This document shows, piece after piece, positions 1,303 to 17,459 of a DNA stretch of 64,000 nucleotides. Numbering within the stretch: position 1 is the first letter of the stretch; every line of letters starts with the position of its first letter. This DNA comes from Candidatus Omnitrophota bacterium. GTDB lineage: Bacteria; Omnitrophota; Gorgyraeia; Gygaellales; Profunditerraquicolaceae. The notes beneath the pieces are model-generated. The model ran no database searches. It was not told the origin of the DNA and was given only the letters and a program-made list of their open reading frames with translations. Location: assembly GCA_022710715.1 (NCBI GenBank), contig JAKLGJ010000001.1, positions 170,041 to 234,040 of the forward strand, written 5' to 3'. A program made the translations under genes and the position numbers.

Positions 1303-1948
1303 CTTATCCAACCAGATCCAGATGATTCGCTTATAAGCATAATTCACTCGTGTTTTCGGCTGTTTCCGGTATATCTTCATTCCGGGTACGGAAAACGCAT
1401 TATGCTCTTTGACAACTACAGAATTAAGAAGAACTACAATAGAACTGAGTTATCTCAATTGTTGGACAAGCTACTAAGGGTTTATGCACGGATGACTTGG
1501 TTAGGTGAGGCGACGAAGGACGCGGTAAGCAGCGATATGCTTCGGGGAGCCGCAAACAGGCTTTGATCCGGAGACTTCCGAATGGGGCAACCCTCTTGGA
1601 GTAAAATCCAAGAACTCTGCGCTGAATACATAGGCGTAGAAGAGCGAACCGGCCCAATTGAAACATCTAAGTAAGCCGAGGAAAAGAAATCGAATGAGAA
1701 TCCCCCAGTAGTGGCGAACGAAAAGGGACCAGCCTAAACTTTCGACACGCGAGTGCCGGGAGGGTTGTGGGACCTCGATATGGTAGTCAAAGGGATAGCG
1801 GAAGTGTCTGGAAAGACACGCCCAAGAGAGTGAAAGTCTCGTACGCGAAATTCTAATGACGCCTAGGGGTATCCCAAGTACCACGGGACACGGGAAATCC
1901 TGTGGGAATCTGGGCCGACCACGGTCTAAGGCTAAATACTACACCTAA

Positions 1949-1979
<31 letters not shown>

Positions 1980-3426
1980 TTGAAAAGAACCCCGGGAGGG
2001 GAGTGAAATAGAACCTAAAATCATAAACCTACAAAGCGGTAGGAGGCCTATACGCATCGCAAGGTGCGGATGGCTGACTGCGTACCTTTTGCATAATGGT
2101 CCGACGAGTTATTAGTTTCAAGCGAGTTTAAGTGAGTTGTGAAAGCATCTCACGAAGGCGTAGGGAAACCGAGTCCTAACCGGGCGACCATAGCTTGAGC
2201 TAATAGACCCGAAGCTGAGTGATCTATCCATGGCCAGAGGGAAGCCTCGCGAAAGCGAGGTGGACGTTCGAACCCTTCGGCGTTGAAAAACCGTGGGATG
2301 AGCTGTGGATTGGAGCGAAAGACTAAACAAACTCAGAAATTGCTGGTTCTCCCCGAAACAATTCTAGGGTTCGCCTTAGAACACTACGTCATAGGGGTAG
2401 AGTGCTGAATGGACTACGGGAGTCTACCGACTTGCCGGGTCCAACCAAACTCCGAATACTATGACGACTATTCTAGGAGTAAGACGACGGGGGCCAAGCT
2501 CCGTCGTCAAAAGGGAATCAGCCCAGATCGCCGGCTAAGGTCCCTAAGATTAGGCTAAGTTATAAAGGATGTGGATCCGCTCAGACAGCCAGGATGTTGG
2601 CTCAGAGGCAGCCATCATTTAAAGAGTGCGTAACAGCTCACTGGCCGAGCGAGTCTGCGCCTAAGATGAACGGGAATTAAGCCTAACACCGAAGCTGTGG
2701 GTGTACGGTGACTTCGGTCATCGTATGCGGTAGGGGAGCATTATCCAGTCGGTTGAAGCGGTACCGTGAGGAGCCGTGGACACTGGATAAGGGATTATGT
2801 CGGAATAAGTAGCGAAAATGTCTGCGAGAAACAGACACGCCGAAAGTCGAAGGTTTCCTGGGGAAGGTTAATCCACCTAGGGTTAGTCGTGCCTAAGCCG
2901 AGGCCAAATGGCGTAGGCGATGGATGAACTGTTAATATTCAGTTACTACCTTGTTGGCGTCATCACTTTTCATGTGACGCAGGAGGGATGGAGCTGCGCA
3001 GTGTTGGATGTCTGCGTTCTTGTGCGGGGAACCGCATGAGGGGAGCTTGAGGTTTCCGAGAGCGAAGTGCACTACTTCCATACTGCCAAGAAAAGCATGG
3101 GAAGGAGTTAACAGGGTACACGTACCGGAATCCGACACAGGTAGACCACCAGAATATGGTAAGGCGATCGAGATAACCCTCTTTAAGGAACTCTGCCAAA
3201 TAGCCGCGTAAGTTCGCAATAAGCGGTGCCCCGCCTCGTAAGGGGATGGGGTCACAGTAAAGTGGATCGGGTGACTGTTTAGCAAAAACACATCTCTCTG
3301 CAAACTCGAAAGAGGACGTATAGGGAGTGACACCTGCCCAGTGCTGGAAGGTTAAGGGAATCTGTTAGTGAGAGCAATCTTGCAAAGCGGTGAACCGAAG
3401 CCCCAGTAAACGGCGGCCGTAACTAT

Positions 3427-4102
3427 TGATTGACCGCAGTAGTTGTAAAATTTGGCTATATGCTGGGAAATCCTGTCAGGCCGGCAGTACGTCTGTCTTT
3501 AAGACGGAACGTGACAATCTGCCGGATAGGGACAATCAGCAGGAAAGACCTGAAGGAGGTCTCCGTGAAGATAGAAACAGGCTATTACTTAGCTGGTTTT
3601 GCGGATGGGGAAGGGAGTTTCAACATATCCTTTCGTCCGAGGCAAGACTATAAATCACCATGGAAAGTTTCTTTGTGTTTCAATATCTCTCAGAAAGATA
3701 AAGTTATTCTTGCATTGTATAAGCGCTATCTAGGCTGTGGAACATTGCGAGGCAGGCCTGATGGAGTCTGGTACTTTGAAGTGAATAATTTCGAATCGAT
3801 CAGAGAGAAAGTAATACCTTTTTTTAGAAGGTATCCATTTTTATCAGCTAAGAAAAAAAGAGATTTCGCAAAATTCTGCGAACTCGCGCGGTTGATTAAA
3901 AATGAGAATCACCTGACAAAAGAGGGGATTAAGAAAATACTTGAAATACGAAGAGATATGAATGATGGTGGCAAACGCAAGTATAGCGAGATGGAGATCT
4001 TAAGCAAGCTTCAGGAATCCTCAGAGACTATACGCCAAACTCCTGGTCAATCAGGAGATGATATAGTCCGGTCTTCCGGGAAACCGGAAGTTAACATGAA
4101 CG
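3427..4102 (+). mobile_element. Group I intron #1 in 23S, inserted after ...GTAACTAT (E. coli about L1917); carries a LAGLIDADG ORF
   Basis: Exon collinearity with E. coli breaks between GTAACTAT and AACGGTCC. The 5' exon ends in U and the intron ends in G. It contains the group I P7 strands (TCAGAGACTATACG at about 4020-4035, GATGATATAGTCC at 4060-4075) and a P9-like hairpin GGTCTTCCGGGAAACCGGAAG. Confidence 0.8.
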
Positions 4103-4113
4103 AACGGTCCTAA
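3565..4113 (+). CDS. LAGLIDADG homing endonuclease (single-motif, about 182 aa), intron-encoded; start probably GTG 3565 (the ORF frame is open from 3430)
   Basis: Motif YYLAGFADGEGSF (LAGLIDADG) near the N-terminus, preceded by SD AGGAGG 5 nt upstream of GTG. The reading frame runs through the intron P7/P9 core and 11 nt into the downstream exon (stop TAA at 4111-4113). Confidence 0.75.
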   Translation: MKIETGYYLAGFADGEGSFNISFRPRQDYKSPWKVSLCFNISQKDKVILALYKRYLGCGTLRGRPDGVWYFEVNNFESIREKVIPFFRRYPFLSAKKKRDFAKFCELARLIKNENHLTKEGIKKILEIRRDMNDGGKRKYSEMEILSKLQESSETIRQTPGQSGDDIVRSSGKPEVNMNERS

Positions 4114-4116
4114 GGT

Positions 4117-4308
4117 TAACGTAATAACGCTAGCCTGCTTGGTAGTAATACCAAAGAATAATTACCAACTATATCGGTGAAGTCCTCGGTTGTATAGAGG
4201 ATAATACCGAGGGAAGTCGTAAATGACCCCGTAGAGACTACACGTTGGCTCCTGCGTAAAGCAGGATGAAGATATAGTCCACGCCAATAGTAATATTGGA
4301 TTAACGTG
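4117..4308 (+). mobile_element. Group I intron #2 in 23S (ORF-less, 192 nt), inserted after ...CCTAAGGT (E. coli about L1931)
   Basis: Exon AACGGTCCTAAGGT (4103-4116) is followed by 192 nt absent from E. coli, then AGCGAAATTCCTTGT. The 5' exon ends in U and the intron ends in G. P7 strands CGTAGAGACTACACG and GATGAAGATATAGTCC are present. Confidence 0.7.
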
Positions 4309-4878
4309 AGCGAAATTCCTTGTGGGGTAAGTTCCCACGCGCACGAATGGTGTAACAACCTGATCGCTGTCTCAAAGAGGGACTCGGCGAAATTGTAGTG
4401 GCGGTGAAGATGCCGTCTACCCGCATCAAGACGAAAAGACCCCAGAACCTTTACTGCAGCCTACCATTGGGTTTTGGTTTAATTTGTGTAGCATAGGTGG
4501 GAGACTTTGAAGCCCGGGCGCTAGCTCGGGCAGAGTCGCAATGTGAAATACCACCCTGATTGGACTAAAATTCTAACCTTCCGACCTGAATCGGCCGGGG
4601 GGACAGTGATAGGCGGGCAGTTTGACTGGGGCGGTTCCCTTCTAAAAAGTAACAAAGGGGCCCAAAGGTTGGCTCAAGTCGGTCGGCAATCGACTTAGGA
4701 GTGTAAGCGCATAAGCCAGCTTGACTGCAAATCCGACAGGACGCGCAGGTACGAAAGTAGGGGCTAATGATCCGGTGGTGAAATGTGGAATTGCCATCGC
4801 TCAACGGATAATAGGTACTCTGGGGATAACAGGCTTATCGGGCTCGAGAGTTCACATCGACAGCCCGGTTTGGCACCT

Positions 4879-5297
4879 CAACATCATGGGGTGGTACGGG
4901 AGCAATCCTGTACATGCATTGGCTAATAACGGTGGAGTCTTCTCCCGGCGCACGCGCCGGGATTGATAATACCGTGGGAAGTCTGCAGAACATAAGCAGT
5001 TATTTCAGTGGTCTTTTCTCTTGGTGACAAAGTCTCAATCGATAGGTCTAATACTTTGATCTCGAATACATACACTAATGGATGGTTCAAAGTTATTAGG
5101 ATGTCTTTTGCTGTTCTTTGCTCATCATGAGAAAGCCATGTTCTGTATGACCCCGTAACGACTGATAGTACGGACGCACGATCCGAGCGTTATACGTACT
5201 TGAGATAGCAGAATGTGTTGCTATCATACGCCAACTCCGCTTACTGCAAACGGAAGAAGATATAGTCTAATCCCATCCGAAAGGATGGACAAGATTG
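4879..5297 (+). mobile_element. Group I intron #3 in 23S (ORF-less, 419 nt), inserted within GGCACCT^CGATGTCGGCTC (E. coli about L2499)
   Basis: Collinearity break inside the conserved peptidyl-transferase-centre sequence. The 5' exon ends in U (4878) and the intron ends in G (5297). The 3' core GAAGAAGATATAGTCTAATCCCATCCGAAAGGATGG (P7 plus P9 hairpin) lies just before the 3' splice site. The AT-rich interior has no intact ORF. Confidence 0.7.
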
Positions 5298-5365
5298 CGA
5301 TGTCGGCTCATCCTATCCTGGGGCTGGATAAGGTCCCAAGGGTCCGGCTGTTCGCCGGTTAAAAG

Positions 5366-5401
<36 letters not shown>

Positions 5402-6145
5402 AAATTGACCGTTGCTGTCTTTAAATCTGGCTATGTGCTGGAAAATCTGAGTATCTCATATTACTAATTGACGAAATAGTCTCTACATGATACTATGCAG
5501 TCGGGAGTGATAATATATGAGTGCAGATCACCAGCAGGAAAGGCCAAGCGGGATAGCATCATTCTATGTCAGTGGTTTTGTCGACGGAGAAGGCTGCTTT
5601 TCTATAACAATTCAGAAAAGTAAAAATGTGAAATTAGGGGTACAGGTTATTCCCGAGTTTCACGTCAGCCAACATCAACGCAGGACTGAAGTTCTTGAAG
5701 CAATCAAGGGTAAGTTTGGTTGTGGCTATATCAAAGCAAACAATCCGAATAACCCCAAAGATCTTACTTCAGTATACGTTGTTCGTAATTTAGCTGATCT
5801 TCGTGATAAAATCGTGCCGTTTTTTAAGAAATATCCTTTGTATTCGTCAAAGCAGCAGGACTTTGAGAAGTTTGCAAAAGTCGTGCATGCTATGAGTAAA
5901 AAGGACCATCTTGAAAAGAACGGTTTAAGCAGAATATTGAAACTATCATTCTCGATGAATGACAGCGGTAGGTATCGTAAACTGAAAATAGAAGATGTGC
6001 TGTCCAGTTTGGAATCCTCAGAGACTATACGCCAGAAGCTTGCTGTAAAGCAAGTTTAAGATATAGTCCGAACTGCATGGCGACATGCAGAGATTGGCAG
6101 AAATGCCCAATCCTTTTACATGACAATGTAGAAGTAACATAATTG
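5402..6145 (+). mobile_element. Group I intron #4 in 23S, inserted at CGTCGTGAGACAGT^TCGG (the I-CreI-type L2593 site); carries a LAGLIDADG ORF
   Basis: Break exactly at the classical L2593 homing site. The 5' exon ends in U (5401) and the intron ends in G (6145). Intron start AAATTGACCG resembles intron #1 start TGATTGACCG. P7 strands TCAGAGACTATACG (about 6018-6031) and TTTAAGATATAGTCC (6057-6071) are present. Confidence 0.8.
5517..6059 (+). CDS. LAGLIDADG homing endonuclease (single-motif, 180 aa), intron-encoded
   Basis: Motif FYVSGFVDGEGCF with ATG start and SD GGGAGTGA upstream. The C-terminal ...SSLESSETIRQ is encoded by the same 24-nt P7 core sequence as in intron #1. Size and architecture resemble I-CreI-family homodimeric enzymes. 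Confidence 0.8.
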   Translation: MSADHQQERPSGIASFYVSGFVDGEGCFSITIQKSKNVKLGVQVIPEFHVSQHQRRTEVLEAIKGKFGCGYIKANNPNNPKDLTSVYVVRNLADLRDKIVPFFKKYPLYSSKQQDFEKFAKVVHAMSKKDHLEKNGLSRILKLSFSMNDSGRYRKLKIEDVLSSLESSETIRQKLAVKQV

Positions 6146-6607
6146 TCGGTCTCTATCTGGTGTGGGCGTCAGGATATTTGAAGGGGAGTTCTCCTCAGTA
6201 CGAGAGGACCAGGAGAAGCGGACCTCCGGTGTTCCGGTTGTCTTGCCAAGGGCAAAGGCCGGGTAGCTATGTCCGTAAGAGATAAGCGCTGAAAGCATCT
6301 AAGTGCCAAACTCGCCCCAAGACTATATATCCCTGGGTCGCAAGACCCTGAAGGCACCTCGAAGACTACGAGGTTGATAGGCGCGGTGTGTAAGATCCGT
6401 AAGGATTTAAGCTAACGCGTACTAATTTGCCAATCGGCTTGTCCTTTAATTTTTTTAATTCAGGACTATTGTAGAACTTCTTAATTCTGTGGTTGTTGAA
6501 TTTCTCTAGACATGTTAATAGGGGAGACCGGAGCACTTTTGCACTTTCGCGCATCCGCGCTCAAGTGCAAAAAAGTTTCCTCTATTGTTTTGTCTAGAAA
6601 CACTTTT

Positions 6608-6723
6608 GGAGTGCCTTTGCCGCAAGGGTCACACCCGTTCCCATTCCGAATACGGTAGTTAAGCCTTGCTGGGCCGATGGTAGTGTATTCGTAAGGATAT
6701 GCTAGAGTAGGTCGGTGCTCCAT
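6608..6723 (+). rRNA. rrf: 5S rRNA
   Basis: GGAGTGCC...CCGTTCCCATTCCGAACACGG-like...GCCGATGGTAGTG...GAGTAGGTCGGTGCTCC. The termini are complementary and the length is about 116 nt. Confidence 0.85.
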
Positions 6724-6730
6724 TAATTTA

Positions 6731-6767
6731 AAAACCCCCGTGATACTATATGCGGGGGTTTTCTTTT
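6731..6767 (+). terminator. Rho-independent terminator after 5S (CCCCCG-loop-CGGGGG followed by TTTTCTTTT)
   Basis: 6-bp GC stem with an 11-nt loop and a U-tract, immediately after the rRNA operon. Confidence 0.6.
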
Positions 6768-6871: not shown

Positions 6872-6905
6872 GCCCGTCAGGCGAAAGCCTGGCGGGCTTT
6901 TTGTT
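6872..6905 (+). terminator. Terminator hairpin GCCCGTCAGG-CGAAAG-CCTGGCGGGC followed by TTTTT (GNRA tetraloop); second copy at 12731
   Basis: 10-bp stem containing one U-G pair, GAAA loop and T5. An almost identical element with compensatory A/T swaps lies at 12731-12762. Confidence 0.55.
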
Positions 6906-7045
6906 TAAGCGGAAAACCTTTTCAAAAAATCCCGTTTTCTGACTTGAAAAACACCTTGAGTATGGTATAATTATCTAGAAATCAATCAAGGGTGCAGTGG
7001 GGAACCTTCTATGATGCTGGGTTCCCTTTTTTGTTTAGCATAGTA

Positions 7046-7086
7046 AAGCCACGGAATGTATTTAACATTGCCGTGGCTTTTTTTTA
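7046..7086 (+). terminator. Hairpin with U-tract (AAGCCACGG-16 nt palindromic loop-CCGTGGCTT followed by TTTTTTT), 27 nt upstream of the RBS of the 1294-aa gene
   Basis: 9-bp stem with T-run. Could be a third operon terminator or an attenuator in the leader of the downstream gene. Confidence 0.45.
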
Positions 7087-7112
7087 CGGCTCACCCGAAA
7101 AAAGGAGAGAAG

Positions 7113-10100
7113 ATGAAACGACTACCGCTATTCATTCTGATTATCTGCTTTTCGACCATTGCCTGGGCGCAGGATGCGGTCCAGACTACATCTTCAAAGA
7201 CCATTGCCGCCACCGGGACAACGGCTAAGAAAAAAACGATGAAAAAGGTCAAGGACGCGGTTAAATCCGGCCAGGTCAAGACAGAAGCGGCCGCTTCTAC
7301 CGACGAAGCGAATCAACCGCCGGCTCGTCCGGGAGACGAAGAAAAGGATCCCGCGGTCTGGGCGGCTTATTACAAAGCGTATATCGCCTGGATGAAAACA
7401 CTGGGAACGGCAGAACGCCGCGCGGCCTGGAAGAACTTGTCCCGGGACTTGCTGGACAGGGTGAATTCGCATCCGGAGACGATCGGTTCCGCTGCCATGC
7501 AGGCGGTATTCAGAGGATTGACCGCGGAATTCAAAGCCATGTTCGCCGCGGACCGCGCGTACGACAAGAAGTATGCTGCGGTGGTGAATAACCTGGTGGA
7601 TGCCGGGGTCAAGTTTATTAAGACTGCGTCGTATAAGGCGTTGAGCCAGACGGACAGCGAGAACTTTATCAGGAGTTTTACCGGATTGGCCGTGGAGACC
7701 GCCTGGCAAAGATCGAATAACAGCTGGAACGGGCATGCTGTTGCGCAGATAGCCGCATTCTACAATGGCCTGATCGATTCCGGTTCCGCCGCTACCAAGC
7801 CTTTTGCGTTCAATCAATTGATGCATCTTTTCCGCACCGTGCGCTGGAACTCCAAGGAAGGCAATCCGGAACTGGGCGACCAGCTCCTCAAGCAGGCATT
7901 GCAGGGCGTTGATTCAAAAACGCTGATCAATGGGTTCAGAACCCGGGCCGGCAATACTGCGCTTGCCGCCGATGAACGCGGGCAGGCCGCGTGTTCCTTA
8001 AGCAATATTCTTTACCATCAGAGCAGCCTGGAAACGGCTTTCGGCGTAAAGCTCACGGATACCCAGGTTGTAAATATTACCGGAGATGTGACCGATGTGC
8101 TCAAAGGCGTCAACAGTAACTCCATCGCAATCAGCGACGCCATGCGTAACAGCCTGTTGCATCTTGCCGGTTGCGCCATCAATCAGAGTATCAACAGGGG
8201 TGAGCAAACCGCAGATCACAACCGTTTGTTCCAGCACGCCTATTTTAAATTTGCGCAGGCATCGCTTCAGAAGAGCGGCAATGCCTCTCTGCAGGCTACT
8301 GCGATCAATATGCTTACTTCGATCCGCAATGCGGCAGCGAAAAAAGACGACGCGAAACTCGCCGCTACCTGTAAAAAACTGCTTCTGGGCGACGTCTCCG
8401 ACCTGGATGGGTTCCTGGACAAGGGACAGGAGGAGATGGGCACTACGAAAAGCGCGGATCATGCCGCCTGGCTGGCCAGGGCCCTGGCGAATATCGCCGC
8501 GTTGAATAAGGCAAGCAAAACAGGCGCGGTGACCGACGCCCAGATCAAAGACATGGTCGCTGCAATCAAGGATTGGATTTCTGTCGAGGATAATCTGGAC
8601 AACATGCGTTTGCGGTCATGGCAGGCGGAGCTGTACTCCGCATTGGCCGAGCTGGCAAAACAGATTTACAAGAAAGGCGAAGCTTTGGGAAGCGATGCCC
8701 AACTGAAGAAGGATTTTGAGCAGATCTTCTCGACTATCGTCGGATTACAGGATTCCAAGGTCAAGGAGCTGGCTGCCAAATATGTGACCAGCCTGGCCGC
8801 CGACCTGCGGGAGCAGGGATATGGCGCTTTTGCCAACCGGCTGGAGATCTCCCTCTGTCCGGATTCCGCTTCCCTGATGGCCAAAGCCTGGGCGTATTTC
8901 AACAAGAAGAATTATGCCGCAGCCAGGGCGTTCTGCGAAGAGACGATCAGCCGGTACACCGCGGAAGCGCTGAAACAACAGGCGTCGCTTAAAGATTATG
9001 CGCCGAAAGGTAAAGAATCGCTGTACTGGGCTTTGAATGACGTGGGCACCGCGCACTTCATCCTGGGTAAGATTTACCGGGCGCAGGGACAATCAGACCA
9101 GGCTAGAGAAGAATTCAAGACCGTGATCAATAAATACGGTTTTGCCCAGTGCTGGGATAAGCAGGGGTGGTGGTGGAAAGTCAAGGATGCGGCTAAGAAG
9201 GAACTGTCCAGCATGAATTCAGAACCGGTGACCATGCCGGTGATCCCGGGGACCGGCTCTACCGACGCCAACGGGAATATCACCATTACCTTCAAGTCGG
9301 GAACGCTGGATAAGAGTAATTTGAGCGAGTTCTGGGCCAAAGTGACCATAGACGGCAAGACCGAGTACTGGGATCTGGGTAAGGGCGCGATCTCCGAAGA
9401 CGGCAAATCCGTGACTCTGAAATTCGATCCCAAGTACGACGGCAAGACCATAGCCATGCAGTTCTACGGGTTCGACAACAAAGGTAAACAGACGGGATAC
9501 AGCAATGCGATCAAGGTGAAGGTAGAATCTGCGACCTCCCCGGTGACCATGCCGGTGATCCCGGGGACCGGCTCTACCGACGCCAACGGGAACCTCACCG
9601 TTACTTTCAAGTCGGGGACGCTGGATAAGAGCAGGTTGAGCGGGTTCTGGGCCAAAGTGACCATAGACGGCAAGACCGAGTACTGGGATCTGGGTAAGGG
9701 CGCGATCTCCGAAGACGGCAAGTCCGTGACCCTGAAATTCGATCCCAAGTACGACGGCAAGACCATTACCATGCAGTTCTATGGATTCGACAATTCCGGT
9801 AAGCAAACAGGATACAGTAATGCGATCAAGGTCACGGTGGATTCCGCGCTGTCGCCGGTGACCATGCCGGTGATCCCGGGGACCGGTTCTACCGACGCCA
9901 ACGGGAACCTCACCGTTACTTTCAAATCGGGAACGCTGGATAAGAGCAGGTTGAGCGGGTTCTGGGCCAAAGTGACCATAGACGGCAAGACCGAGTACTG
10001 GGATCTGGGTAAGGGCGCGATCTCCGAAGACGGCACCTCGATCTTTTTGAATCTCGATTCCAAATACGGCGGCAAGACCGTCACTATGCAATTCTACGGG

Positions 10101-10997
10101 TTCGACACCGAAGGTAAACAAACCGGTTTCAGTAATGCCATCGCAGTGAAAGTCGAGACATCGGGAACAGGAGGGTTTTCCGGATTTGGCCAGCCGGAGC
10201 GTATCGGAGCAGGGGGATACACTGAACTCGGCTATACCTATGACGACACCATTTATTATTATGAGGATTTGGCGAACGCCACAGATAAGAAAGTAGTGAT
10301 GCTGGGCGGCAGTGATTCCTGGGAACTGACCGGGCCTGACGGATCGAAACTTCAACTCAATCCGTGGTCTGTCATCATCGCCAAGGGCGGCAAGTCAGTG
10401 GCCGATGTCATCCGGAAAGTCGAAGACGAATATGTGATAACCGGGGACGTTCAGATCCTGAATTTCCAGAATGTCTATCATTTCGAACGGCAGGATGATT
10501 ATGTTTTCAGGCCTGAAAATCAGGAACTGTATTGCGATTCCTATTCTTTTTCATCCGGCGCCGGTGTCGGCCTGCAGACATTGCCCAGAGAGCCGTATTA
10601 TCATATCGGGACCCCTGAACCGCAAAAAGTTGAGAAGGTGGTTAAGCCCGGATATGATATTTCGGGTCTGCCGCAGAACAAGGTTGTCTATCCTTCTTTT
10701 GACCTGCTGGGCGGCGCAGGCGTGGAAAATGTCCGGGCATTCGGATTCGGCACAAGCAGGGGCGGTGGCGGCTGGTATGTCATCGGGCCGGACGGGATGG
10801 AAATAGATCTGGTTTCCGGCAGCCGGATGGTGTTCGCTGACAACCCGAAAAACGCGCTTGAGTTCGTTTCCGCAGGGAAATATCGCATAACGAAGCCGGT
10901 AACCGTGCTCATTATGCTGGACGGTAATTATCTGGATAAGTATACGATTACGCCGGACAGCAAGACATATTTGGAATATCGGGAGTATTACAAGTAG
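7113..10997 (+). CDS. Large secreted repeat protein (1294 aa): signal peptide, N-terminal alpha-helical/TPR-like region, 3 x 105-aa tandem beta-rich repeats, C-terminal domain; function unknown
   Basis: ATG 7113 with SD AAAAGGAGAGAAG and an N-terminal MKRLPLFILIICFSTIAWAQ signal peptide. The repeats PVTMPVIPGTGSTDANGN..TFKSGTLDKS...YGFDN.GKQTGYSNAIKV are seen in translation. The ORF caller's upstream start at 7056 was rejected. Confidence 0.75.
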   Translation: MKRLPLFILIICFSTIAWAQDAVQTTSSKTIAATGTTAKKKTMKKVKDAVKSGQVKTEAAASTDEANQPPARPGDEEKDPAVWAAYYKAYIAWMKTLGTAERRAAWKNLSRDLLDRVNSHPETIGSAAMQAVFRGLTAEFKAMFAADRAYDKKYAAVVNNLVDAGVKFIKTASYKALSQTDSENFIRSFTGLAVETAWQRSNNSWNGHAVAQIAAFYNGLIDSGSAATKPFAFNQLMHLFRTVRWNSKEGNPELGDQLLKQALQGVDSKTLINGFRTRAGNTALAADERGQAACSLSNILYHQSSLETAFGVKLTDTQVVNITGDVTDVLKGVNSNSIAISDAMRNSLLHLAGCAINQSINRGEQTADHNRLFQHAYFKFAQASLQKSGNASLQATAINMLTSIRNAAAKKDDAKLAATCKKLLLGDVSDLDGFLDKGQEEMGTTKSADHAAWLARALANIAALNKASKTGAVTDAQIKDMVAAIKDWISVEDNLDNMRLRSWQAELYSALAELAKQIYKKGEALGSDAQLKKDFEQIFSTIVGLQDSKVKELAAKYVTSLAADLREQGYGAFANRLEISLCPDSASLMAKAWAYFNKKNYAAARAFCEETISRYTAEALKQQASLKDYAPKGKESLYWALNDVGTAHFILGKIYRAQGQSDQAREEFKTVINKYGFAQCWDKQGWWWKVKDAAKKELSSMNSEPVTMPVIPGTGSTDANGNITITFKSGTLDKSNLSEFWAKVTIDGKTEYWDLGKGAISEDGKSVTLKFDPKYDGKTIAMQFYGFDNKGKQTGYSNAIKVKVESATSPVTMPVIPGTGSTDANGNLTVTFKSGTLDKSRLSGFWAKVTIDGKTEYWDLGKGAISEDGKSVTLKFDPKYDGKTITMQFYGFDNSGKQTGYSNAIKVTVDSALSPVTMPVIPGTGSTDANGNLTVTFKSGTLDKSRLSGFWAKVTIDGKTEYWDLGKGAISEDGTSIFLNLDSKYGGKTVTMQFYGFDTEGKQTGFSNAIAVKVETSGTGGFSGFGQPERIGAGGYTELGYTYDDTIYYYEDLANATDKKVVMLGGSDSWELTGPDGSKLQLNPWSVIIAKGGKSVADVIRKVEDEYVITGDVQILNFQNVYHFERQDDYVFRPENQELYCDSYSFSSGAGVGLQTLPREPYYHIGTPEPQKVEKVVKPGYDISGLPQNKVVYPSFDLLGGAGVENVRAFGFGTSRGGGGWYVIGPDGMEIDLVSGSRMVFADNPKNALEFVSAGKYRITKPVTVLIMLDGNYLDKYTITPDSKTYLEYREYYK
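9225..10169 (+). repeat. Three tandem 315-bp direct repeats inside the CDS (units 9225-9539, 9540-9854, 9855-about 10169); the first two are about 97 % identical, the third diverges in its 3' half
   Basis: Period measured from CCGGTGACCATGCCGG at 9225, 9540 and 9855. The antisense ORFs 9464-9772 and 9779-10084 give near-identical translations, confirming DNA identity. Confidence 0.9.
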
Positions 10998-11139
10998 GCG
11001 CCCGGTACGCAGGGAAGCTGTATCGTTTGCAATCGTTTTCAAAAGAACGCGCTGCGGCTCTTGAAAAAGCGCCGCAGGCGCGTATACTTGAAGCAGGTCA
11101 GTCGAAGTGCACAATCCGGGGCCGATTCAGGAGGGAGAC

Positions 11140-11871
11140 ATGTTCTCTTGCGTCGTGCCTTTTTTGTTAGCCGCAGTCTGTTTCTTCAGTAGTGTATCCG
11201 TTCTCTTCGCTTCCGACGCTATTCAACCGCCTATTGTCGCGCCCGTAATTCATCAGCAAAACGATGCTACTATGCCGCAGCGGGCCCGGCTATCCTTCAA
11301 ACCCGTTCATGCCGTATCGCTGGATCCGATCGAGCAGATTGAAGTCGAAGAAAAGAAGAAAGAGCAGAATGAAAAGCCGCGGTTCCAATTCGATCCCGCG
11401 TCCGATTTTTTCATCGACTTGACCGAGGCCGAAGTGTCGGCCATGTTTGCCCAGGCCAGCCAGCAGCTTAGTCAGCAGGCGCAGCAGATCGTGGATCCGG
11501 CTGCGCGCGTCCAGGCTCTGGCCAGCGTTCAAGCTGAAATTTCCAAGGCCGAAACACAGGTGAAAGTCGCCTGCACGCAGTTCAAACAACGAATGATCTC
11601 GCTTAATCAATCCTACAAGCAGCAGCTTAAAGCGGCCTGGGCGGAGATTGTCGATGCCAGGGATGTCGATGCTAAAGACCAGGCGGTTGCAGTGTACCAG
11701 CGATTGCAGGAGGAATACAGCAAAGAAGTGAGCGCTGTCAGGGCGGAGTTCGCAAAAACCATTCACGCTGCGGTCCAGGGATTTACCCAGGGCACTGCCC
11801 GATGCCGGCAGGAAATTCAGAATACAAGGGAGCAGGCGGCGCGTCAGGCGCACATAGCCGGTCATTTGTAA
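11140..11871 (+). CDS. Secreted hypothetical protein (signal peptide; Q/A-rich predicted coiled coil)
   Basis: MFSCVVPFLLAAVCFFSSVSVLFASDA signal peptide; remainder low complexity (QQLSQQAQQ...). Start chosen at the internal ATG 11140 of ORF 11107-11871. Confidence 0.55.
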   Translation: MFSCVVPFLLAAVCFFSSVSVLFASDAIQPPIVAPVIHQQNDATMPQRARLSFKPVHAVSLDPIEQIEVEEKKKEQNEKPRFQFDPASDFFIDLTEAEVSAMFAQASQQLSQQAQQIVDPAARVQALASVQAEISKAETQVKVACTQFKQRMISLNQSYKQQLKAAWAEIVDARDVDAKDQAVAVYQRLQEEYSKEVSAVRAEFAKTIHAAVQGFTQGTARCRQEIQNTREQAARQAHIAGHL

Positions 11872-11994
11872 CCGCCTGTTATTGATCTTGCGACTTGACA
11901 ATTAGCGAAATAGCTGGTATACTTAACTATGAATTGCCACGGACATGATGCAAATGAACATCATGTGTGTGGCTATTTTTTTTAGGGGGAAGGT

Positions 11995-12687
11995 ATGAAA
12001 ATCAGAATTGCAGTAGGGATGGTAGTTGGGATCATGGTGTTTGTTGTCGGCGGGGCGATTTCTACCGCGTCGGCTTACACGGTCACCTGTCCCGATGCCA
12101 GTTTTAACGGCACCGGCGTACAGAAGTATGTTCAACTCGGGGAGAGGTGGGATCTGAATCTCGGTGATCTGGAGATAGCGTATACCGTGGATATGTCCGC
12201 ATTGACTCCTTCGTCCCAGTCCACGGTGTGGACTTCAGTCGGAGTGGCTAAGACTTTGCCTGATGAACGGGCATGGTTGAGTTCGAGCGTGAACACTACC
12301 TATTACAAAAACATCATGGCCGGATGGAACGTCGATGAGCGCAGTCCGGATGCCGGGTCGTATCTGCGGGTTGCGGAAGCGAGCACTCCTTCGGTTTACG
12401 ATATCGTGTTGCATTTCAGCAAAACCGACGTTAGTAATACCGCGCTCATGACCGGCTACGTCAACGGTGAAAAGATAGCGGGAGATGTTGTTTTTACCGC
12501 GGATCTGGCGCAGCTGGGTTTCTTCTACGAATATTCGTCGTCGGCTACCGATCCGGTTCACGGCGCAGTGACCATTTCCAATGTCGTCGCTTCGGGCGAG
12601 CGTTCGGTTGTGCCGGAGCCTTCCAGCATGATGCTGCTGGGAAGCGGTTTGTGCGGCTTGCTCGGTTTGTTGCGCAAAAGAGCGTAA
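11995..12687 (+). CDS. PEP-CTERM sorting-domain protein (exosortase substrate), secreted
   Basis: N-terminal signal peptide MKIRIAVGMVVGIMVFVVGGAISTASA. The C-terminus VPEPSSMMLLGSGLCGLLGLLRKRA is the canonical PEP motif plus TM helix plus RKR. SD GGGGGAAGG upstream. Confidence 0.8.
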   Translation: MKIRIAVGMVVGIMVFVVGGAISTASAYTVTCPDASFNGTGVQKYVQLGERWDLNLGDLEIAYTVDMSALTPSSQSTVWTSVGVAKTLPDERAWLSSSVNTTYYKNIMAGWNVDERSPDAGSYLRVAEASTPSVYDIVLHFSKTDVSNTALMTGYVNGEKIAGDVVFTADLAQLGFFYEYSSSATDPVHGAVTISNVVASGERSVVPEPSSMMLLGSGLCGLLGLLRKRA

Positions 12688-12730: not shown

Positions 12731-12762
12731 GCCCGTCTGGCGAAAGCCAGGCGGGCTTTTTA
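12731..12762 (+). terminator. Terminator hairpin GCCCGTCTGG-CGAAAG-CCAGGCGGGC followed by TTTTT (paralogue of the 6872 element)
   Basis: Same stem, loop and U-G wobble position as the 6872-6905 element with compensatory T/A exchange. Lies between the convergent PEP-CTERM gene and the response-regulator gene. Confidence 0.6.
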
Positions 12763-13773: not shown

Positions 13774-14670
13774 GTGTTTCAGCGTACGTTAAGAAGGAAG
13801 ATCGGTGAGCTGTTGATTGAACGCGGGATAATTACTGCCGAACAGCTCGAACGCGCCCTGGAGGAGCAGCGGCACAAAGGCGGCTATATCAGCCAGCATC
13901 TGGTGGCTATGCAATTCGCCACCGAACTCGATATCGCGATCTGTCTTTCCAACCAGTACAATTTCGCTTATCTACCCCTCAACCATTACGCCATCCCGGC
14001 GGAGATCCTGACCACCATTCCTTTCAAATGGATCCGGCTCTATTCTCTTATTCCCATCGATAAAATCGGAAATTCCCTGACCGTGGCCATGGCCGATCCT
14101 TTGAACGAAGGGGTTATCCAGATGCTTCGCCAGATTACCGGCTGTGAGTTGAAAGTTTTCATCAGTACCTACGGCGAAATTAACGAAGCCATCGGTCGTT
14201 ATTTCAAGGATGAATTGTCCAGGGTCAAAGAGATCGTTCTCGCGGACATGAGTAAATTGACCGTGATCAATGAATTTATCCAGACCAAAGCGTATACAGG
14301 AGGGGAGCGCAGACAGTTTCTCCGGTTGAACGTGAAACTGATCTTCGAGTTTAATTTCTACGGCCAGTCCTTCCGATCCGAAACCCTCAATGTCAGTTTC
14401 GGGGGTATATGTTTTCTGTCGCCGGTTTCCATACCGGTGGATAATGATATCGTTTGTAAAGTCCATCTGTCCCCGGACCGCGCCGTTGATTGTATTATCA
14501 AAGTCATGAGGGTTCAAAGCCGCAGGTCTGAAGGAGAAGTGAGCGGTTTGTTTGAAATCGCCGGCGTTTTCGCTTTCATCAATGATGAGGAGAAAATGCA
14601 GATGGTCGAATTCTTGAAATCGCAACTGGCTTGCAATGGTGCCCGCACAACCGTCGAGGGAAAACAATGA
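13774..14670 (+). CDS. MshEN-like (T2SS-E N-terminal domain) + PilZ domain protein; predicted c-di-GMP receptor
   Basis: The N-terminus LLIERGIITAEQLERALEEQ...LVAMQFATELDIAICLSNQYNFAYLP is a GspE-N/MshEN-type fold. The C-terminus has PilZ signatures RRQFLRLNV and NVSFGGICF (RxxxR...D/NxSxxG). GTG start with SD GGGAG. Confidence 0.65.
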   Translation: MFQRTLRRKIGELLIERGIITAEQLERALEEQRHKGGYISQHLVAMQFATELDIAICLSNQYNFAYLPLNHYAIPAEILTTIPFKWIRLYSLIPIDKIGNSLTVAMADPLNEGVIQMLRQITGCELKVFISTYGEINEAIGRYFKDELSRVKEIVLADMSKLTVINEFIQTKAYTGGERRQFLRLNVKLIFEFNFYGQSFRSETLNVSFGGICFLSPVSIPVDNDIVCKVHLSPDRAVDCIIKVMRVQSRRSEGEVSGLFEIAGVFAFINDEEKMQMVEFLKSQLACNGARTTVEGKQ

Positions 14671-15350
14671 AAATACGCGTGAAGTCCGTCAAATGGATAC
14701 TGCTGGCGGCATATCTGTTGATCGTCACGGGATTCTTCGGCCTGGCCTTCAGCGGTAAACTTCCCGATGATAACCCGGTCTGCGACGTTTTTTACGGATT
14801 ACGGGGACACCTGTTCTGGACGTTGCTGATCCTTGTGCTGACGTTTGCATCGCAAGCGTTTTTTATCTGGACTCTGGGTACGGTTGATCTGTGCAAGCCG
14901 TTACGCCGGCGCCGGCTTATCGGACCGGCGGCGATGGCCGCGCTGATGTTGACCACGCTGGTCAGCGGTATCATCCTGGCACTGGCGGAATTTTTCGACT
15001 ATTATCCCAGGCACGGGGAAGTTCTGTTCTGGACCGTCCTGACGATTAACTGGTTGTTATGGAGCGTAGTATTCCTGCTGGCGTATAAAAATACGCCGCG
15101 TTTGAAGATTTTCTCGCAGTGGTTGACGGTTTTGCTGGCCGGAAGCCTGCTGGAATTGTTGATTACCATCCCGGCGCATATAGTGGTGAGCCGGCGTCCG
15201 GGGTGTTTCGCCGGAATGTATACCGGGCTGGGTATTGTGGCCGGGATACTGGTGATGTTCTGGGCATTCGGGCCGGGGATCATTTTCCTGTTCTTTTTTC
15301 AGAGAGCGACAGGTAATGCCGGTCAAAATAACACTAAGGGGGGGATGTAA
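14667..15350 (+). CDS. Polytopic inner-membrane protein (about 6 TM), unknown function
   Basis: Hydrophobic helices throughout. ATG 14667 overlaps the stop of the upstream gene (ATGA), and its own stop overlaps the pilin start (TAATG), suggesting translational coupling. Confidence 0.55.
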   Translation: MKIRVKSVKWILLAAYLLIVTGFFGLAFSGKLPDDNPVCDVFYGLRGHLFWTLLILVLTFASQAFFIWTLGTVDLCKPLRRRRLIGPAAMAALMLTTLVSGIILALAEFFDYYPRHGEVLFWTVLTINWLLWSVVFLLAYKNTPRLKIFSQWLTVLLAGSLLELLITIPAHIVVSRRPGCFAGMYTGLGIVAGILVMFWAFGPGIIFLFFFQRATGNAGQNNTKGGM

Positions 15351-15955
15351 TGAGGGTACGAGGGTTCACGCTGGTGGAGTTGATCGTGGTCATTGCAATC
15401 ATCGCTGTTCTGGCGGCGGTAATCGCGCCGCAGGCGTATCGGGCGGTTGAGAAGGCGAAGATCGCCAAGGCGCATACTGATTACAGGGCGATACATACCG
15501 CGACCTACGCATTGCACGGGGATACCGGCGATTGGCCGCACGGCGGGAATAGCCGGGAGAGGGTAATCTGGTCCGGCTTAATGCGGAACCCTCCTTTGTG
15601 GAATGCCGCAGGGACGCTTAACGTCCCCTATGGCGGATGGAATGGTCCCTATCTGGAGAAGTTCTCCGGAATGCATCCATGGGGAGGGATATATATGTTC
15701 TCGACTAATGCAAATTTCGGCCGTGGCACAGCAGGCGAGCTGGCTGTGGAATTCGAAAATATGTGTTTCCCCAACGGCGCGACTTCAAACTGCCCTGTTC
15801 CACTGTCGTCCCAGCTTATCATCGATCGCTCTCTTGATGATGGCGTCAATAATGTCGGAGAGGTGCAGCGGACATCCTGGAATGATCTGCATTGGGTGAT
15901 CATATGGGATAAATGCGCTCCCGGAGTTGTTGCCTGTGAGAACAGCAGTTCCTGA
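15350..15955 (+). CDS. Prepilin-type N-terminal cleavage/methylation domain protein (type IV pilin / pseudopilin-like) #1
   Basis: MRVRG|FTLVELIVVIAIIAVLAAVIAP: class III leader peptide with G-1, F+1, E+5 and a hydrophobic alpha-1 helix. Confidence 0.85.
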   Translation: MRVRGFTLVELIVVIAIIAVLAAVIAPQAYRAVEKAKIAKAHTDYRAIHTATYALHGDTGDWPHGGNSRERVIWSGLMRNPPLWNAAGTLNVPYGGWNGPYLEKFSGMHPWGGIYMFSTNANFGRGTAGELAVEFENMCFPNGATSNCPVPLSSQLIIDRSLDDGVNNVGEVQRTSWNDLHWVIIWDKCAPGVVACENSSS

Positions 15956-15966
15956 TAGTGTTTTTT

Positions 15967-15994
15967 GTTGACAGCTCTCTGTTTTGAGGTAAAA
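15967..15994 (+). promoter_or_regulatory. Sigma-70-like promoter TTGACA-16 nt-TAAAAT
   Basis: Near-consensus -35 and -10 boxes with a 16-nt spacer in the intergenic region after pilin #1. Positioned to drive the micro-ORF at 16096. Confidence 0.45.
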
Positions 15995-16095
15995 TACTCT
16001 ATGAAGGGGAGGGAGTATGCCGTTCAAGTAGCGCAGTAAAGAAGAGCAACTTTCAGATGATGAGGGTTGCTTTATTTTTTAAAAAGGTGGTGAGT

Positions 16096-16167
16096 ATGTC
16101 ATGTATGACCTGCGCGGCGCATAAAAAGAAAAAAGCCAAGCTGAAAACCAAAAAAAAGAAGAAGTAG
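16096..16167 (+). CDS. Putative micro-protein (23 aa) MSCMTCAAHKKKKAKLKTKKKKK: CxxC followed by a poly-Lys tail
   Basis: ATG with SD AGGTGG 6 nt upstream, a promoter 100 nt upstream and a strong terminator 90 nt downstream. Not in the 60-aa-minimum ORF track; speculative. Confidence 0.3.
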   Translation: MSCMTCAAHKKKKAKLKTKKKKK

Positions 16168-16258
16168 TTGTGATTCGCGGGTTCCTACCCTACCTCAGTT
16201 CTCGCAGGGGCGAACGTCTTTGCCTCTGCGAGGGCAGACCCGCGCCTGCGGCGCGGTA

Positions 16259-16289
16259 AAACTTATCACCTGGTGATAAGTTTTTTTTT
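16259..16289 (+). terminator. Rho-independent terminator AACTTATCACC-TGGTGATAAGTT followed by TTTTTTTTT
   Basis: Perfect 11-bp stem and a T9 tract. Confidence 0.6.
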
Positions 16290-16306
16290 GAACGAAAGGA
16301 AAAAAG

Positions 16307-16876
16307 ATGAGAAAAGGTTTTACGCTGGTGGAATTGATCGTGGTGATCGCGATCATCGCTATCCTGGCCGCGGTGATCGCGCCCAACGCTTTTAAGGCGA
16401 TCGAAAAAGCGAAACTAGCCAAGACCCAGCGGGATCTTAAGTCTATTAAGACCGCAGTGTCGGCTTTGTACGCCGACACCGGGAAATTTCCCAACGGGTG
16501 TCCTGCTTTCAGCTCTGCCAATCCCGAGGTTTATTTCAATCAGCCTCAAGCCGGGCTGGTGCGCCGGCCGACGGTGGGCGTGGTCGAAGCCCCTTCCTGT
16601 GAATGGAGACAGAGTGAAGTGAATGCCTGGGACGGTCCGTATCTGGAAAGTACCAACGTCCTGGATTTCTGGAAAACCGCGTATATGTTCGATCCGGATT
16701 ATGTCCCGTGCGGTACGACCGCCGGCAATTGCCCGGCTACTTCTTCACCGTACACTGAATGCCGGGCGGCTTGCGGCGGTGCTTTCAATTGCTATCCGCC
16801 TATGCTGGTCAGTTTTGGCCCGGATAAACTGGAATATACCTGCGACGATATCCTGGTCCAGTTGACCTTGAAATAA
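16307..16876 (+). CDS. Prepilin-type pilin/pseudopilin-like protein #2
   Basis: MRKG|FTLVELIVVIAIIAILAAVIAPNAF; SD GAAAGGAAAAAAG. Confidence 0.85.
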   Translation: MRKGFTLVELIVVIAIIAILAAVIAPNAFKAIEKAKLAKTQRDLKSIKTAVSALYADTGKFPNGCPAFSSANPEVYFNQPQAGLVRRPTVGVVEAPSCEWRQSEVNAWDGPYLESTNVLDFWKTAYMFDPDYVPCGTTAGNCPATSSPYTECRAACGGAFNCYPPMLVSFGPDKLEYTCDDILVQLTLK

Positions 16877-16888
16877 GAAAGGTTGCAG

Positions 16889-17440
16889 ATGATCGAAAAA
16901 GGTTTTACCCTGGTGGAATTGATCGTGGTGATCGCGATCATCGCTATCCTGGCCGCGGTGATCGCGCCCAACGCGTTCCGGGCCATCGAGAAGGCGAAAT
17001 GCGCTCAAGCCGTTAAAGACGCCAAGACCATTCGTACCGCTGCCGCCGAATACTATGCCGATACCGGACAGTGGCCGCCTGTTTACCGTTTAACCACCCC
17101 GATCAACCCTTTTCTGACCAACCCGCCGGTGACCGGATGGGCAGGGCCGTATCTGGACAAATGGAAGCCTCATCCGTGGTCAGGTCATATAGGGTGGGAT
17201 GCGACTCTTGATCTTGATGCGAACGGTAAAGCAGACGGCTGTGTCGTTTACGATGATGATCAGCCGGGGACAAGTGCTTCCAATAACGCAGGGAGGATTC
17301 CGCGCAAGTCCATGGAGAATATCGATCTGGTCCTGGATGACGGGAATCTTTCCCGTGGTATGGTCCAGGGAGACGGTCTGGGATTGCTTTCCGCGGCAGG
17401 TGAACTGGTGATCATGGTTATACATGATAACAATGGCTGA
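16889..17440 (+). CDS. Prepilin-type pilin/pseudopilin-like protein #3
   Basis: MIEKG|FTLVELIVVIAIIAILAAVIAPNAFRAIEKAK; SD AAGAAAGG. The ORF track starts at an upstream TTG 16883. Confidence 0.85.
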   Translation: MIEKGFTLVELIVVIAIIAILAAVIAPNAFRAIEKAKCAQAVKDAKTIRTAAAEYYADTGQWPPVYRLTTPINPFLTNPPVTGWAGPYLDKWKPHPWSGHIGWDATLDLDANGKADGCVVYDDDQPGTSASNNAGRIPRKSMENIDLVLDDGNLSRGMVQGDGLGLLSAAGELVIMVIHDNNG

Positions 17441-17459
17441 CGGCATTGCAGGAGGAAAG

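Follow-up and report, generated by a model that had tools for sequence, protein, structure and literature searches.

A modular exported protein of an Omnitrophota bacterium with predicted Ig-like repeats, encoded at a variable site beside an rRNA operon

What might a 1294-residue exported protein, encoded downstream of a ribosomal RNA (rRNA) operon by a gene with three 315-bp tandem repeats, be doing for its host? The Omnitrophota are uncultured, mostly ultra-small bacteria that are suspected of living on other cells and whose exported proteins are almost wholly unannotated. The gene considered here lies on the forward strand of a 64,000-nt stretch (referred to as the window) of Candidatus Omnitrophota bacterium contig JAKLGJ010000001.1 (assembly GCA_022710715.1, positions 170,041-234,040), in which a first-pass annotation, made from the sequence alone, had proposed a surface/adhesin or matrix locus with a recently amplified repeat. 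A secreted protein with three immunoglobulin (Ig)-like repeats is of an ordinary kind, and the variable site next to the rRNA operon is the more notable aspect. We assign a probability of about 0.5 to the reading of the product as a non-catalytic, modular protein that is exported through the Sec pathway, serves in binding or adhesion and carries an Ig-like stalk of variable length; a putative adhesin or matrix role is plausible for it. This reading builds on the absence of enzyme signals, the extracellular setting of the repeat in other proteins, the mosaicism of the alleles at the locus and the published views of the Omnitrophota, in which large secreted proteins beside type II secretion system (T2SS)-like loci have been linked to adhesion or predation (bioRxiv 10.1101/2023.11.21.568195; PMC10066038). 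In such a protein, an alpha-solenoid of ~510 residues with its tetratricopeptide repeat (TPR) cap and a C-terminal pair of beta-rich subdomains would serve as the ligand-binding ends, whereas three Ig-like domains would form a rigid spacer, the length of the array setting the reach of the protein. The most probable role would be attachment to other cells, or to a matrix or polymer, and the gene would occupy a recombination-prone site between the rRNA operon and a T2SS/type IV pilus (T4P)-like cluster. The sequence and model data show the anatomy, the folds of two of the three regions, the relationships of the family, the mosaic make-up of the repeats and the variation between alleles, and from these we infer export beyond the periplasm, the adhesion function and the spacer role.

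The position and anatomy of the gene were as initially described. The reading frame is open from 7056 to 10997 (+), and translation most likely starts at ATG 7113, with GGAG 6-9 nt upstream, yielding a product of 1294 aa. The same start is used by the NCBI annotation and by a 95%-identical relative (L001). An NCBI protein identical to the window product, HOW42573.1, is labelled Candidatus Omnitrophota bacterium, and the related loci belong to Omnitrophota metagenome-assembled genomes (MAGs). The signal peptide claimed in the first-pass annotation is of the Sec type and is readable on inspection of the translation from ATG 7113 as MKRLPLFILIICFSTIAWA followed by QD. The protein is built of the following parts:

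7113..10997, + strand: coding sequence of the exported modular protein, 1294 aa plus stop (open reading frame (ORF) call, translation, identical database protein)
7113..7169, + strand: Sec signal peptide, residues 1-19, cleaved between AWA and QD, no lipobox (translation inspected; homologues start with signal peptides, too)
7170..7337, + strand: low-complexity K/T/A-rich linker, residues 20-75 (translation; homologues hold variable inserts at the same position)
7338..8864, + strand: 'Nhel', predicted HEAT/ARM-like alpha-solenoid with ~28 of the 31 helices of the model (AlphaFold2, Foldseek)
8865..9224, + strand: 'TPRmod', 120-aa TPR-like module ending in the beta-hairpin CWDKQGWWWKV (Pfam TPR scores; strands at model residues 604-614)
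9225..9539, + strand: repeat unit 1 (U1), residues 705-809, predicted Ig/FN3-like beta-sandwich (Tandem Repeats Finder, alignment, model)
9540..9854, + strand: repeat unit 2 (U2), residues 810-914 (Tandem Repeats Finder, alignment)
9855..10169, + strand: repeat unit 3 (U3), residues 915-1019, 3' part diverged (Tandem Repeats Finder, alignment)
10170..10994, + strand: C-terminal Gly/Tyr-rich domain, residues 1020-1294, two diverged copies (self-alignment)

The N-terminal half, which had been described as helical and TPR-like, conforms to that description. The AlphaFold2 model of residues 76-704 (alignment A3, 21 sequences) is all-alpha, with a pLDDT of 95.1 and a pTM of 0.91, and comprises 31 helices, each of at least four residues, with CWDKQGWWWKV forming a terminal beta-hairpin. 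The predicted structure falls into the HEAT/ARM alpha-solenoid fold class: Foldseek matched it to importin-beta, karyopherins, the PP2A A subunit, designed repeat proteins and a periplasmic flagellar scaffold, with E-values of 5e-5 to 1e-3 for the top matches and TM-scores of only 0.2-0.3. The start of Nhel carries a conserved motif, PPxRPxD..DPxxW..YY, and searches with this region against Pfam (including HEAT/Arm) and PDB sequences yielded no match. Profile searches of the PDB with the solenoid alignment and with the repeat alignment returned chance-level matches only. None of the top 50 Foldseek matches of the N-terminal model is an enzyme fold, and no catalytic Pfam or NCBIfam match was obtained anywhere in the 1294 residues. 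The model resembles solenoid scaffolds alone, which led us to reject an N-terminal enzyme, such as a lyase or hydrolase of the (alpha/alpha)-barrel type.

When scored alone, the TPR module (residues 585-704) exceeds the Pfam gathering cutoffs of TPR_6 (39.0 bits, cutoff 26.3), TPR_2 (36.1, cutoff 27), TPR_8 (34.4, cutoff 25.7) and TPR_1 (29.6, cutoff 27.8), with two stretches per profile, and can be classified as tetratricopeptide repeats; in the model, this stretch is helical. A conserved signature peculiar to the module consists of S..L..KAW, YWALNDVGT and the hairpin AQCWDxxGWxW (also AQCWDPxGWFWK). As a ~120-aa TPR-motif module of an exported protein, it resembles CpoB/YbgF (TIGR02795; PDB 6g5s, 2xev), from which it differs in the YWALNDVGT element, the AQCWDxxGWxW beta-hairpin and the lack of a Tol-Pal context. 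The TIGR02795 profile gave 17.7 bits against a cutoff of 90.1, aligned at profile positions 39-70 only, and in the profile search against the PDB, CpoB (E = 0.0028) and YbgF (E = 0.1) were each matched through one motif.

These likenesses bear on the main rival to the binding/adhesion reading, namely, that the protein would work in the periplasm as a scaffold or assembly factor of the neighbouring T2SS/T4P-like apparatus, where subunits would dock on the HEAT/TPR part and the periplasm would be bridged by the Ig-like domains. We consider this rather unlikely. It fits the presence of a signal peptide without a surface-sorting signal, the weak, single-motif likeness to CpoB/YbgF and the fact that the fourth-ranked Foldseek match is a Campylobacter periplasmic flagellar scaffold; however, the TM-scores to every solved scaffold are low (0.14-0.29). 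Additional evidence on both sides comes from the homologues and the genomic context, as detailed below.

The three tandem units occupy exactly the positions assigned to them at the outset. Tandem Repeats Finder reports a single array at 9225-10142 (period 315, 2.9 copies, 89% matches, no indels, score 1430), and the three units align gap-free and in frame. For one unit, AlphaFold2 (alignment A2, 54 units) predicts a seven-stranded beta-sandwich with a pLDDT of 96.1 and a pTM of 0.87, in agreement with the Ig-like module initially suspected. Foldseek found 51 PDB matches at E <= 1e-3, with FN3 and Ig-V domains on top (probability 1.0, E ~2e-4, TM-score 0.5-0.6, 10-18% identity). The predicted unit has the attributes of the Ig/FN3-like beta-sandwich class (seven strands, two sheets, ~100 residues) and, judging from the model, represents an Ig/FN3-like fold without a close solved relative. 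Membership in Big_2 or fn3, for which profile searches had been suggested, or in Big_1 was not recovered above cutoff: the whole protein scores 20.9 bits against Big_1 (PF02369; gathering cutoff 34.9) and 16.5 bits against BIg21 (cutoff 27.4), with no match to Big_2 or fn3, and 0 of the 54 aligned family units match the Pfam Ig-like models at E <= 0.01. No other copies of the modules of this protein are present elsewhere in the 64-kb window.

Ig-like stalks are familiar from the BIg-repeat surface proteins, which include invasin and intimin (Big_1) and the giant adhesins SiiE and BapA. Similar to these, the window protein is exported, carries a tandem stalk of ~100-aa beta-sandwiches with variable unit number between functional ends and gives the weak, sub-threshold Big_1 signal of 20.9 bits. 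Unlike them, it has no Pfam Ig-like match (0/54), beta-barrel anchor, type I secretion signal or LysM domain, and its N-terminal half is an alpha-solenoid, which is missing from those adhesins.

The protein was orphan-like until the HMMER search. A word-indexed search with the full protein retrieved only its own strain and one 95%-identical relative, and the repeat profile retrieved two fragments only. When 1.84 billion cluster representatives were searched exhaustively with HMMER, with the one-unit relative as the query, 600 proteins were obtained at E <= 1e-3. We mapped the four regions of the window protein onto the best 150 of these 600 representatives. Nhel (residues ~76-584) was found in 19 of the 150, mostly followed by the TPR module. 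The TPR module itself is present in the great majority (126/150), either alone in 150-190-aa signal-peptide proteins, a form typical of periplasmic TPR proteins and hence favourable to the scaffold explanation, or in arrays of up to six. The repeat unit (residues 705-1019) occurs in 21, in arrays of 2-16. Predicted folds and boundaries can be offered for three recurrent blocks without Pfam models of their own, namely, the HEAT-like solenoid, the Trp-hairpin TPR module and the Ig-like unit.

The company of the repeat is extracellular in appearance. For instance, one complete gene on a 123-kb contig (P0005) encodes a signal peptide followed by 16 repeat units only, and three other complete genes on long contigs (L014, L016 and L017) encode a signal peptide with 8-9 units and nothing else. 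Two further proteins (P0019 and P0034) have three units placed after GH26 glycoside-hydrolase and CBM30-like regions. The arrays in signal-peptide proteins and after GH26 suggest that the repeat is a general-purpose, mobile extracellular spacer module, and its presence in secreted GH26 enzymes and in fibre-like proteins of 8-16 units is difficult to reconcile with a periplasmic scaffold. Units inside one protein are 30% to 94% identical, suggesting that old and recent duplications coexist in the family. The 16-unit repeat gene (L011, 5989-11856) ends in a single stop codon, beyond which there is an ORF with three more units; a recent nonsense mutation or programmed read-through might account for this codon, as might an error of sequencing.

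The occurrence of the repeat after GH26 (and CBM30-like) domains is also an argument for a carbohydrate-binding accessory role in polysaccharide capture or degradation, with the Ig-like units or the C-terminal domain as binding modules. However, Ig-like linkers in glycoside hydrolases are usually spacers, not binders. Furthermore, the protein has no CAZy-type or carbohydrate-binding module (CBM) match in Pfam, its units resemble generic FN3/Ig domains rather than CBM folds, and the solenoid does not have the (alpha/alpha)6 barrel fold of enzymes. Near two paralogous homologues in one locus (L009) lie genes for a glycosyltransferase and, ~4 kb from the paralogues, an exosortase, and published work holds that the secreted giants of Omnitrophota join attachment with carbohydrate degradation (bioRxiv 10.1101/2023.11.21.568195), both of which are compatible with such a role. 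On balance, we regard it as decidedly unlikely.

The homologues further indicate how a protein of the binding/adhesion type might have been put together. In L005, L007 and both L009 paralogues, the solenoid and TPR module are followed directly by a stop codon, with no repeats, so that this core is a protein in its own right, usually without repeats. The window gene is accordingly a fusion variant (core, Ig-like stalk and orphan head), drawn from a core that exists alone and a repeat that exists elsewhere. The homologues in L005 (7173-9893), L007 (6966-9899) and L009 (4065-6386 and 7272-9887, the latter two being tandem paralogues of the solenoid core protein) carry N-terminal inserts with 'C/AGG..xYYDxxGNLIG' repeats. 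These YYDxxGN-type inserts, which recall YD repeats, are missing from the window protein.

Two homologues, L008 and L018, share the genomic setting of the window gene. In both, an rRNA operon lies upstream, with the LAGLIDADG intron layout of the window in L008. Nucleotides 1-571 of L018 are 82% identical to window positions 6161-6735, and the downstream MshEN-PilZ gene of L018 is 70% identical to window positions 13795-14203. Given the common rRNA-operon flank and, in L018, the MshEN-PilZ gene as well, we take these genes to be positional orthologues of the window gene. Their architectures are as follows:

Window: signal peptide, short linker, solenoid, TPR module, three repeat units, C-terminal domain
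L008: signal peptide, 300-aa insert, solenoid, TPR module, 355-aa helical extension; a serine recombinase downstream
L018: signal peptide, L008-type insert, different solenoid, two repeat units, stop; no TPR module and no C-terminal domain

The comparison of L018 (1-5850) with L008 (6183-8026) shows 93-99% DNA identity over the first 1.7 kb, the conserved stretch reaching from the 5S region to codon ~330 of the homologue. The proteins are ~90% identical up to residue ~330 and ~40% identical thereafter, and their C-terminal modules differ, which points to a recombination breakpoint inside the gene. Likewise, the first unit of L018 is 80% (nucleotides) and 83% (amino acids) identical to U1/U2 of the window, whereas the solenoids are only 34% identical. 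Such allele mosaicism suggests recombinational exchange of modules at the locus, and the variation of the gene between related genomes is unusually large. Mosaicism of this kind is typical of exposed, interaction-determining proteins contacting cells, phages or polymers.

This variability also bears on the scaffold explanation. In the window and in L018, the gene lies between T2SSF, which in the full contig is found beyond the rRNA operon, and the MshEN-PilZ/pseudopilin genes, as might befit a part of that apparatus. However, machinery parts are normally conserved, yet the syntenic alleles differ radically in their solenoids and C-terminal modules, and the homologues in L005, L007 and L009 are not located beside secretion or pilus clusters. 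A more far-reaching suggestion, which we make tentatively and consider unlikely, is that the rRNA-adjacent site is a dedicated diversification locus, where a conserved exported N-terminus would receive exchangeable solenoid and C-terminal cassettes. The cassettes would include Ig-like arrays of differing length, the orphan double domain with the GPDG motif and the MgtE_N-like helical extension, exchanged through recombination among co-occurring populations. If so, the protein would be a determinant of host, prey or phage specificity, comparable to cassette-swapping tail fibres or polymorphic adhesins. More generally, the blocks are shuffled at a syntenic variable locus, and if the protein mediates attachment, the alleles would mark host or substrate specificity.

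How old is the array itself? The first-pass annotation held that U1 and U2 differ by only a handful of substitutions and that the amplification was recent; comparison of the units supports neither claim. U1 and U2 differ by 32 nt (9 aa), or ~10%, with nine of the differences in unit positions 1-181 and 23 in positions 182-315. The corresponding values are 50 nt (21 aa; 10 and 40) for U1 versus U3 and 49 nt (18 aa; 3 and 46) for U2 versus U3, so the observation that U3 is diverged in its 3' part does hold. A 77-bp core (positions 105-181) is 100% identical in all three units, whereas the 65-nt tails (positions 251-315) differ by 26-40%, including 12-14 of the 22 third codon positions (55-64%). 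By comparison, over the N-terminal 2.1 kb of the gene, the window and L001 (95% amino acid identity) differ by 5.0% of nucleotides and 10% of third positions. The third-position divergence of the tails thus far exceeds that between the window and L001, suggesting that the array is older than the strain split; the tails appear to be much older and the cores younger than this event. The mosaic of near-identical 5' two-thirds beside strongly diverged tails suggests gene conversion, and the array is best read as an old duplication, partly homogenised by gene conversion and unequal exchange. Continuing unequal crossing-over and gene conversion between units would maintain the identical 77-bp core and yield alleles of one, two or three units. 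The apparent recent amplification is accordingly better explained, on this evidence, by an old duplication with gene conversion, along with some assembly ambiguity.

The extent of that ambiguity can be gauged from four same-strain assemblies, namely, the window, L004 (JGI 3300010429), L003 (ENA ERZ761563) and L002 (GCA_035390565.1), each of which contains three units. L004 equals the window throughout the gene and shows a single mismatch in 21 kb. In L002 and L003, 26 positions deviate from the window, every one of them within the array (9722-9932), and L003 shows 0 differences outside the array over 15.6 kb. In both, U2 has the 3' part of U1 and U3 has the 5' part of U2, so that the array reads a1b1, a2b1, a2b3 instead of the a1b1, a2b2, a3b3 of the window. 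This is the pattern expected when two similar loops are merged around an invariant core in a de Bruijn graph, and we take the difference for ambiguous phasing and not for demonstrated biological variation. The window array is probably the better resolved one, because its unit-specific extra variants cannot arise as an artefact.

Might the three-unit array as a whole be an assembly artefact, resulting from expansion, collapse or mis-phasing? The loop-merge pattern in L002 and L003 (the latter clean outside the array) and the location of the one-unit relative on a 3.7-kb contig are in line with this possibility. However, each unit has private substitutions and a distinct tail, which neither collapse nor expansion can create, three units are present in all four assemblies, and the unit is predicted to be a well-folding domain that is widespread in arrays of other proteins. 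We therefore consider an artefact very unlikely, the uncertainty being confined to the order, the phasing and possibly a higher true copy number. An exact search of metagenome contigs with the invariant 38-nt repeat core gave 0 matches, the collection evidently lacking the source samples.

The variable copy number proposed in the first-pass annotation stands for the family, in which the 95%-identical relative has one unit and the syntenic orthologue L018 has two, but within the species it is no more than suggested. The single unit of the former (P0002/L001), from a highly fragmented MAG (GCA_025490955.1) in which the contig concerned measures 3.7 kb, corresponds to U1 over positions 1-250 (eight differences) and to U3 over positions 251-315 (two differences). 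It could be a U1 x U3 deletion by unequal crossover or, equally, an assembly collapse; a single unit as the ancestral state is not supported, the unit being a U1/U3 chimera.

Near-identical tandem repeats are also known from Gram-positive repeat-variable surface proteins of the alpha C/Rib, Esp and Bap types. As in these, the units of the window gene are in frame and homogenised in DNA, with copy number shifting by recombination, and the chimeric possible deletion allele L001 offers a parallel, an assembly collapse being equally possible. The window protein differs in having only three units, with a 100% identical core and tails near third-position saturation, in lacking an LPXTG anchor and in belonging to another phylum with another envelope.

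The C-terminal domain, correctly noted at first as Gly-rich, contains 35 Gly and 23 Tyr in 275 residues. It consists of two copies of a unit of ~110 residues (~10197-10523 and ~10632-10964) with the common motif W-x-[LV]-x-GPDG. The self-similarity has a Smith-Waterman score of 61, compared to 30.2 +/- 5.2 for shuffled sequences (0 of 2000 shuffles reach 61), and BLASTP gives E = 0.003. Neither the domain nor its halves matched Pfam, NCBIfam or PDB sequences even at E <= 1. Among the best 150 of the 600 representatives, the domain is confined to four close relatives, so that it seems to be the sole part of the protein that is unique to the lineage. The word-indexed search with residues 1020-1294 missed even the parent protein, and its empty result is no sign of absence.

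Several observations weigh against the binding/adhesion reading. A PEP-CTERM motif, a lipobox, an LPXTG motif and a hydrophobic C-terminal segment are all lacking from the protein itself. Its signal peptide terminates in AWA before QD with no match to the lipobox [LVI][ASTVI][GAS]C, the sole Cys (LIIC) being preceded by Ile at -1; the PEP-CTERM profiles (PF07589/TIGR02595) do not match, and the C-terminus (...TYLEYREYYK) is hydrophilic. A T9SS-type or other C-terminal sorting domain was rejected for lack of a profile match and of a hydrophobic tail. With no recognizable anchoring or sorting signal, the protein could remain periplasmic or be released, and HEAT/TPR platforms are equally typical of periplasmic scaffolds. 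The role of the C-terminal domain as a 'head' is a guess, the domain having no homologues outside close relatives. The neighbouring genes are not conserved alongside the gene (see below). Finally, all copy-number data come from short-read metagenome assemblies, and the one-unit allele on the 3.7-kb contig has exactly the form of an assembly collapse.

Omnitrophota giant proteins reportedly reach ~40,000 aa. Giant secreted proteins encoded next to T2SS-like loci have been described in this phylum by West-Roberts et al. (bioRxiv 10.1101/2023.11.21.568195) and Seymour et al. (PMC10066038), including the archaeovorin type, in which a giant gene with many enzymatic and attachment domains lies downstream of a T2SS-like locus (bioRxiv 10.1101/2023.11.21.568195). 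The window protein has in common with them the phylum, a poorly annotated, multidomain and secreted nature, TPR/HEAT content, proximity to T2SS/pilin-like genes and a proposed role in adhesion. By contrast, it has 1294 residues, rather than tens of thousands, and no enzymatic domains, and despite the adjacent T2SS/pilin-like genes it does not belong to the archaeovorin-type giants.

Downstream of the repeat-protein gene are two genes for putative exported proteins and a terminator:

11140..11871, + strand: exported Q-rich protein, 243 aa, probably coiled-coil (context; promoter-like site at 11061-11088)
11995..12687, + strand: PEP-CTERM (exosortase-sorted) protein (PF07589 30.2 bits, TIGR02595 22.4 bits, above cutoffs)
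12731..12761, + strand: intrinsic terminator, a near-copy of that at 6872-6902, ending the three-gene block (sequence comparison)

A promoter-like site (11895-11923) precedes the PEP-CTERM gene. The first-pass annotation had joined these two genes with the repeat protein into one locus, a grouping that the homologous loci do not support, both genes being missing at the syntenic L018 and beside the homologues in L005, L007, L008 and L009; they are neighbours, not demonstrated partners. A strong terminator (6872-6902) lies between the 5S gene and the repeat-protein gene. The two 31-nt terminator hairpins (6872-6902 and 12731-12761) are 94% identical, with one compensatory pair, and bracket the three-gene block exactly; they may reflect reuse of one terminator element or mark the borders of an insertion.

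Between the first of these terminators and the start codon are two further elements:

6944..6971, + strand: candidate sigma-70-like promoter, TTGAAA-16-TGgTATAAT, with extended -10 (11/12 matches; consensus match only)
6999..7085, + strand: 5' leader with two hairpin and T-run elements, 6999-7032 and 7048-7085 (read from the sequence)

The leader RNA folds with -43.6 kcal/mol (z = -3.0), and an attenuator is one possible role of its hairpins, a conserved upstream terminator another. From ~7026 to the ATG, it is ~99% identical in L001 (155-242), where the sequence upstream of ~7026 is unrelated, so that this position appears to mark a synteny breakpoint. We dismissed the start set by JGI at 7056 (1313 aa) because it falls inside a leader hairpin, lacks a ribosome-binding site and precedes the signal peptide.

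The 5' end of the window is occupied by the rRNA operon, which comprises the 3' part of the 16S gene, tRNA-Ile, tRNA-Ala, the 23S gene and the 5S gene (6607-6723). The 23S rRNA gene (1464-6445) extends over ~5 kb and contains group I introns at 4107-4300, 5866-6090 and possibly 5084-5289; LAGLIDADG homing-endonuclease ORFs (3430-4113 and 5517-6059) accompany two of the introns. On the other side, positions 13774-18011 hold a T2SS/T4P-like set with a protein of the MshEN+PilZ (c-di-GMP-binding) type that has no ATPase domain. The same region encodes four pseudopilin paralogues, whose 5' ends have 110-126-nt repeats in common.

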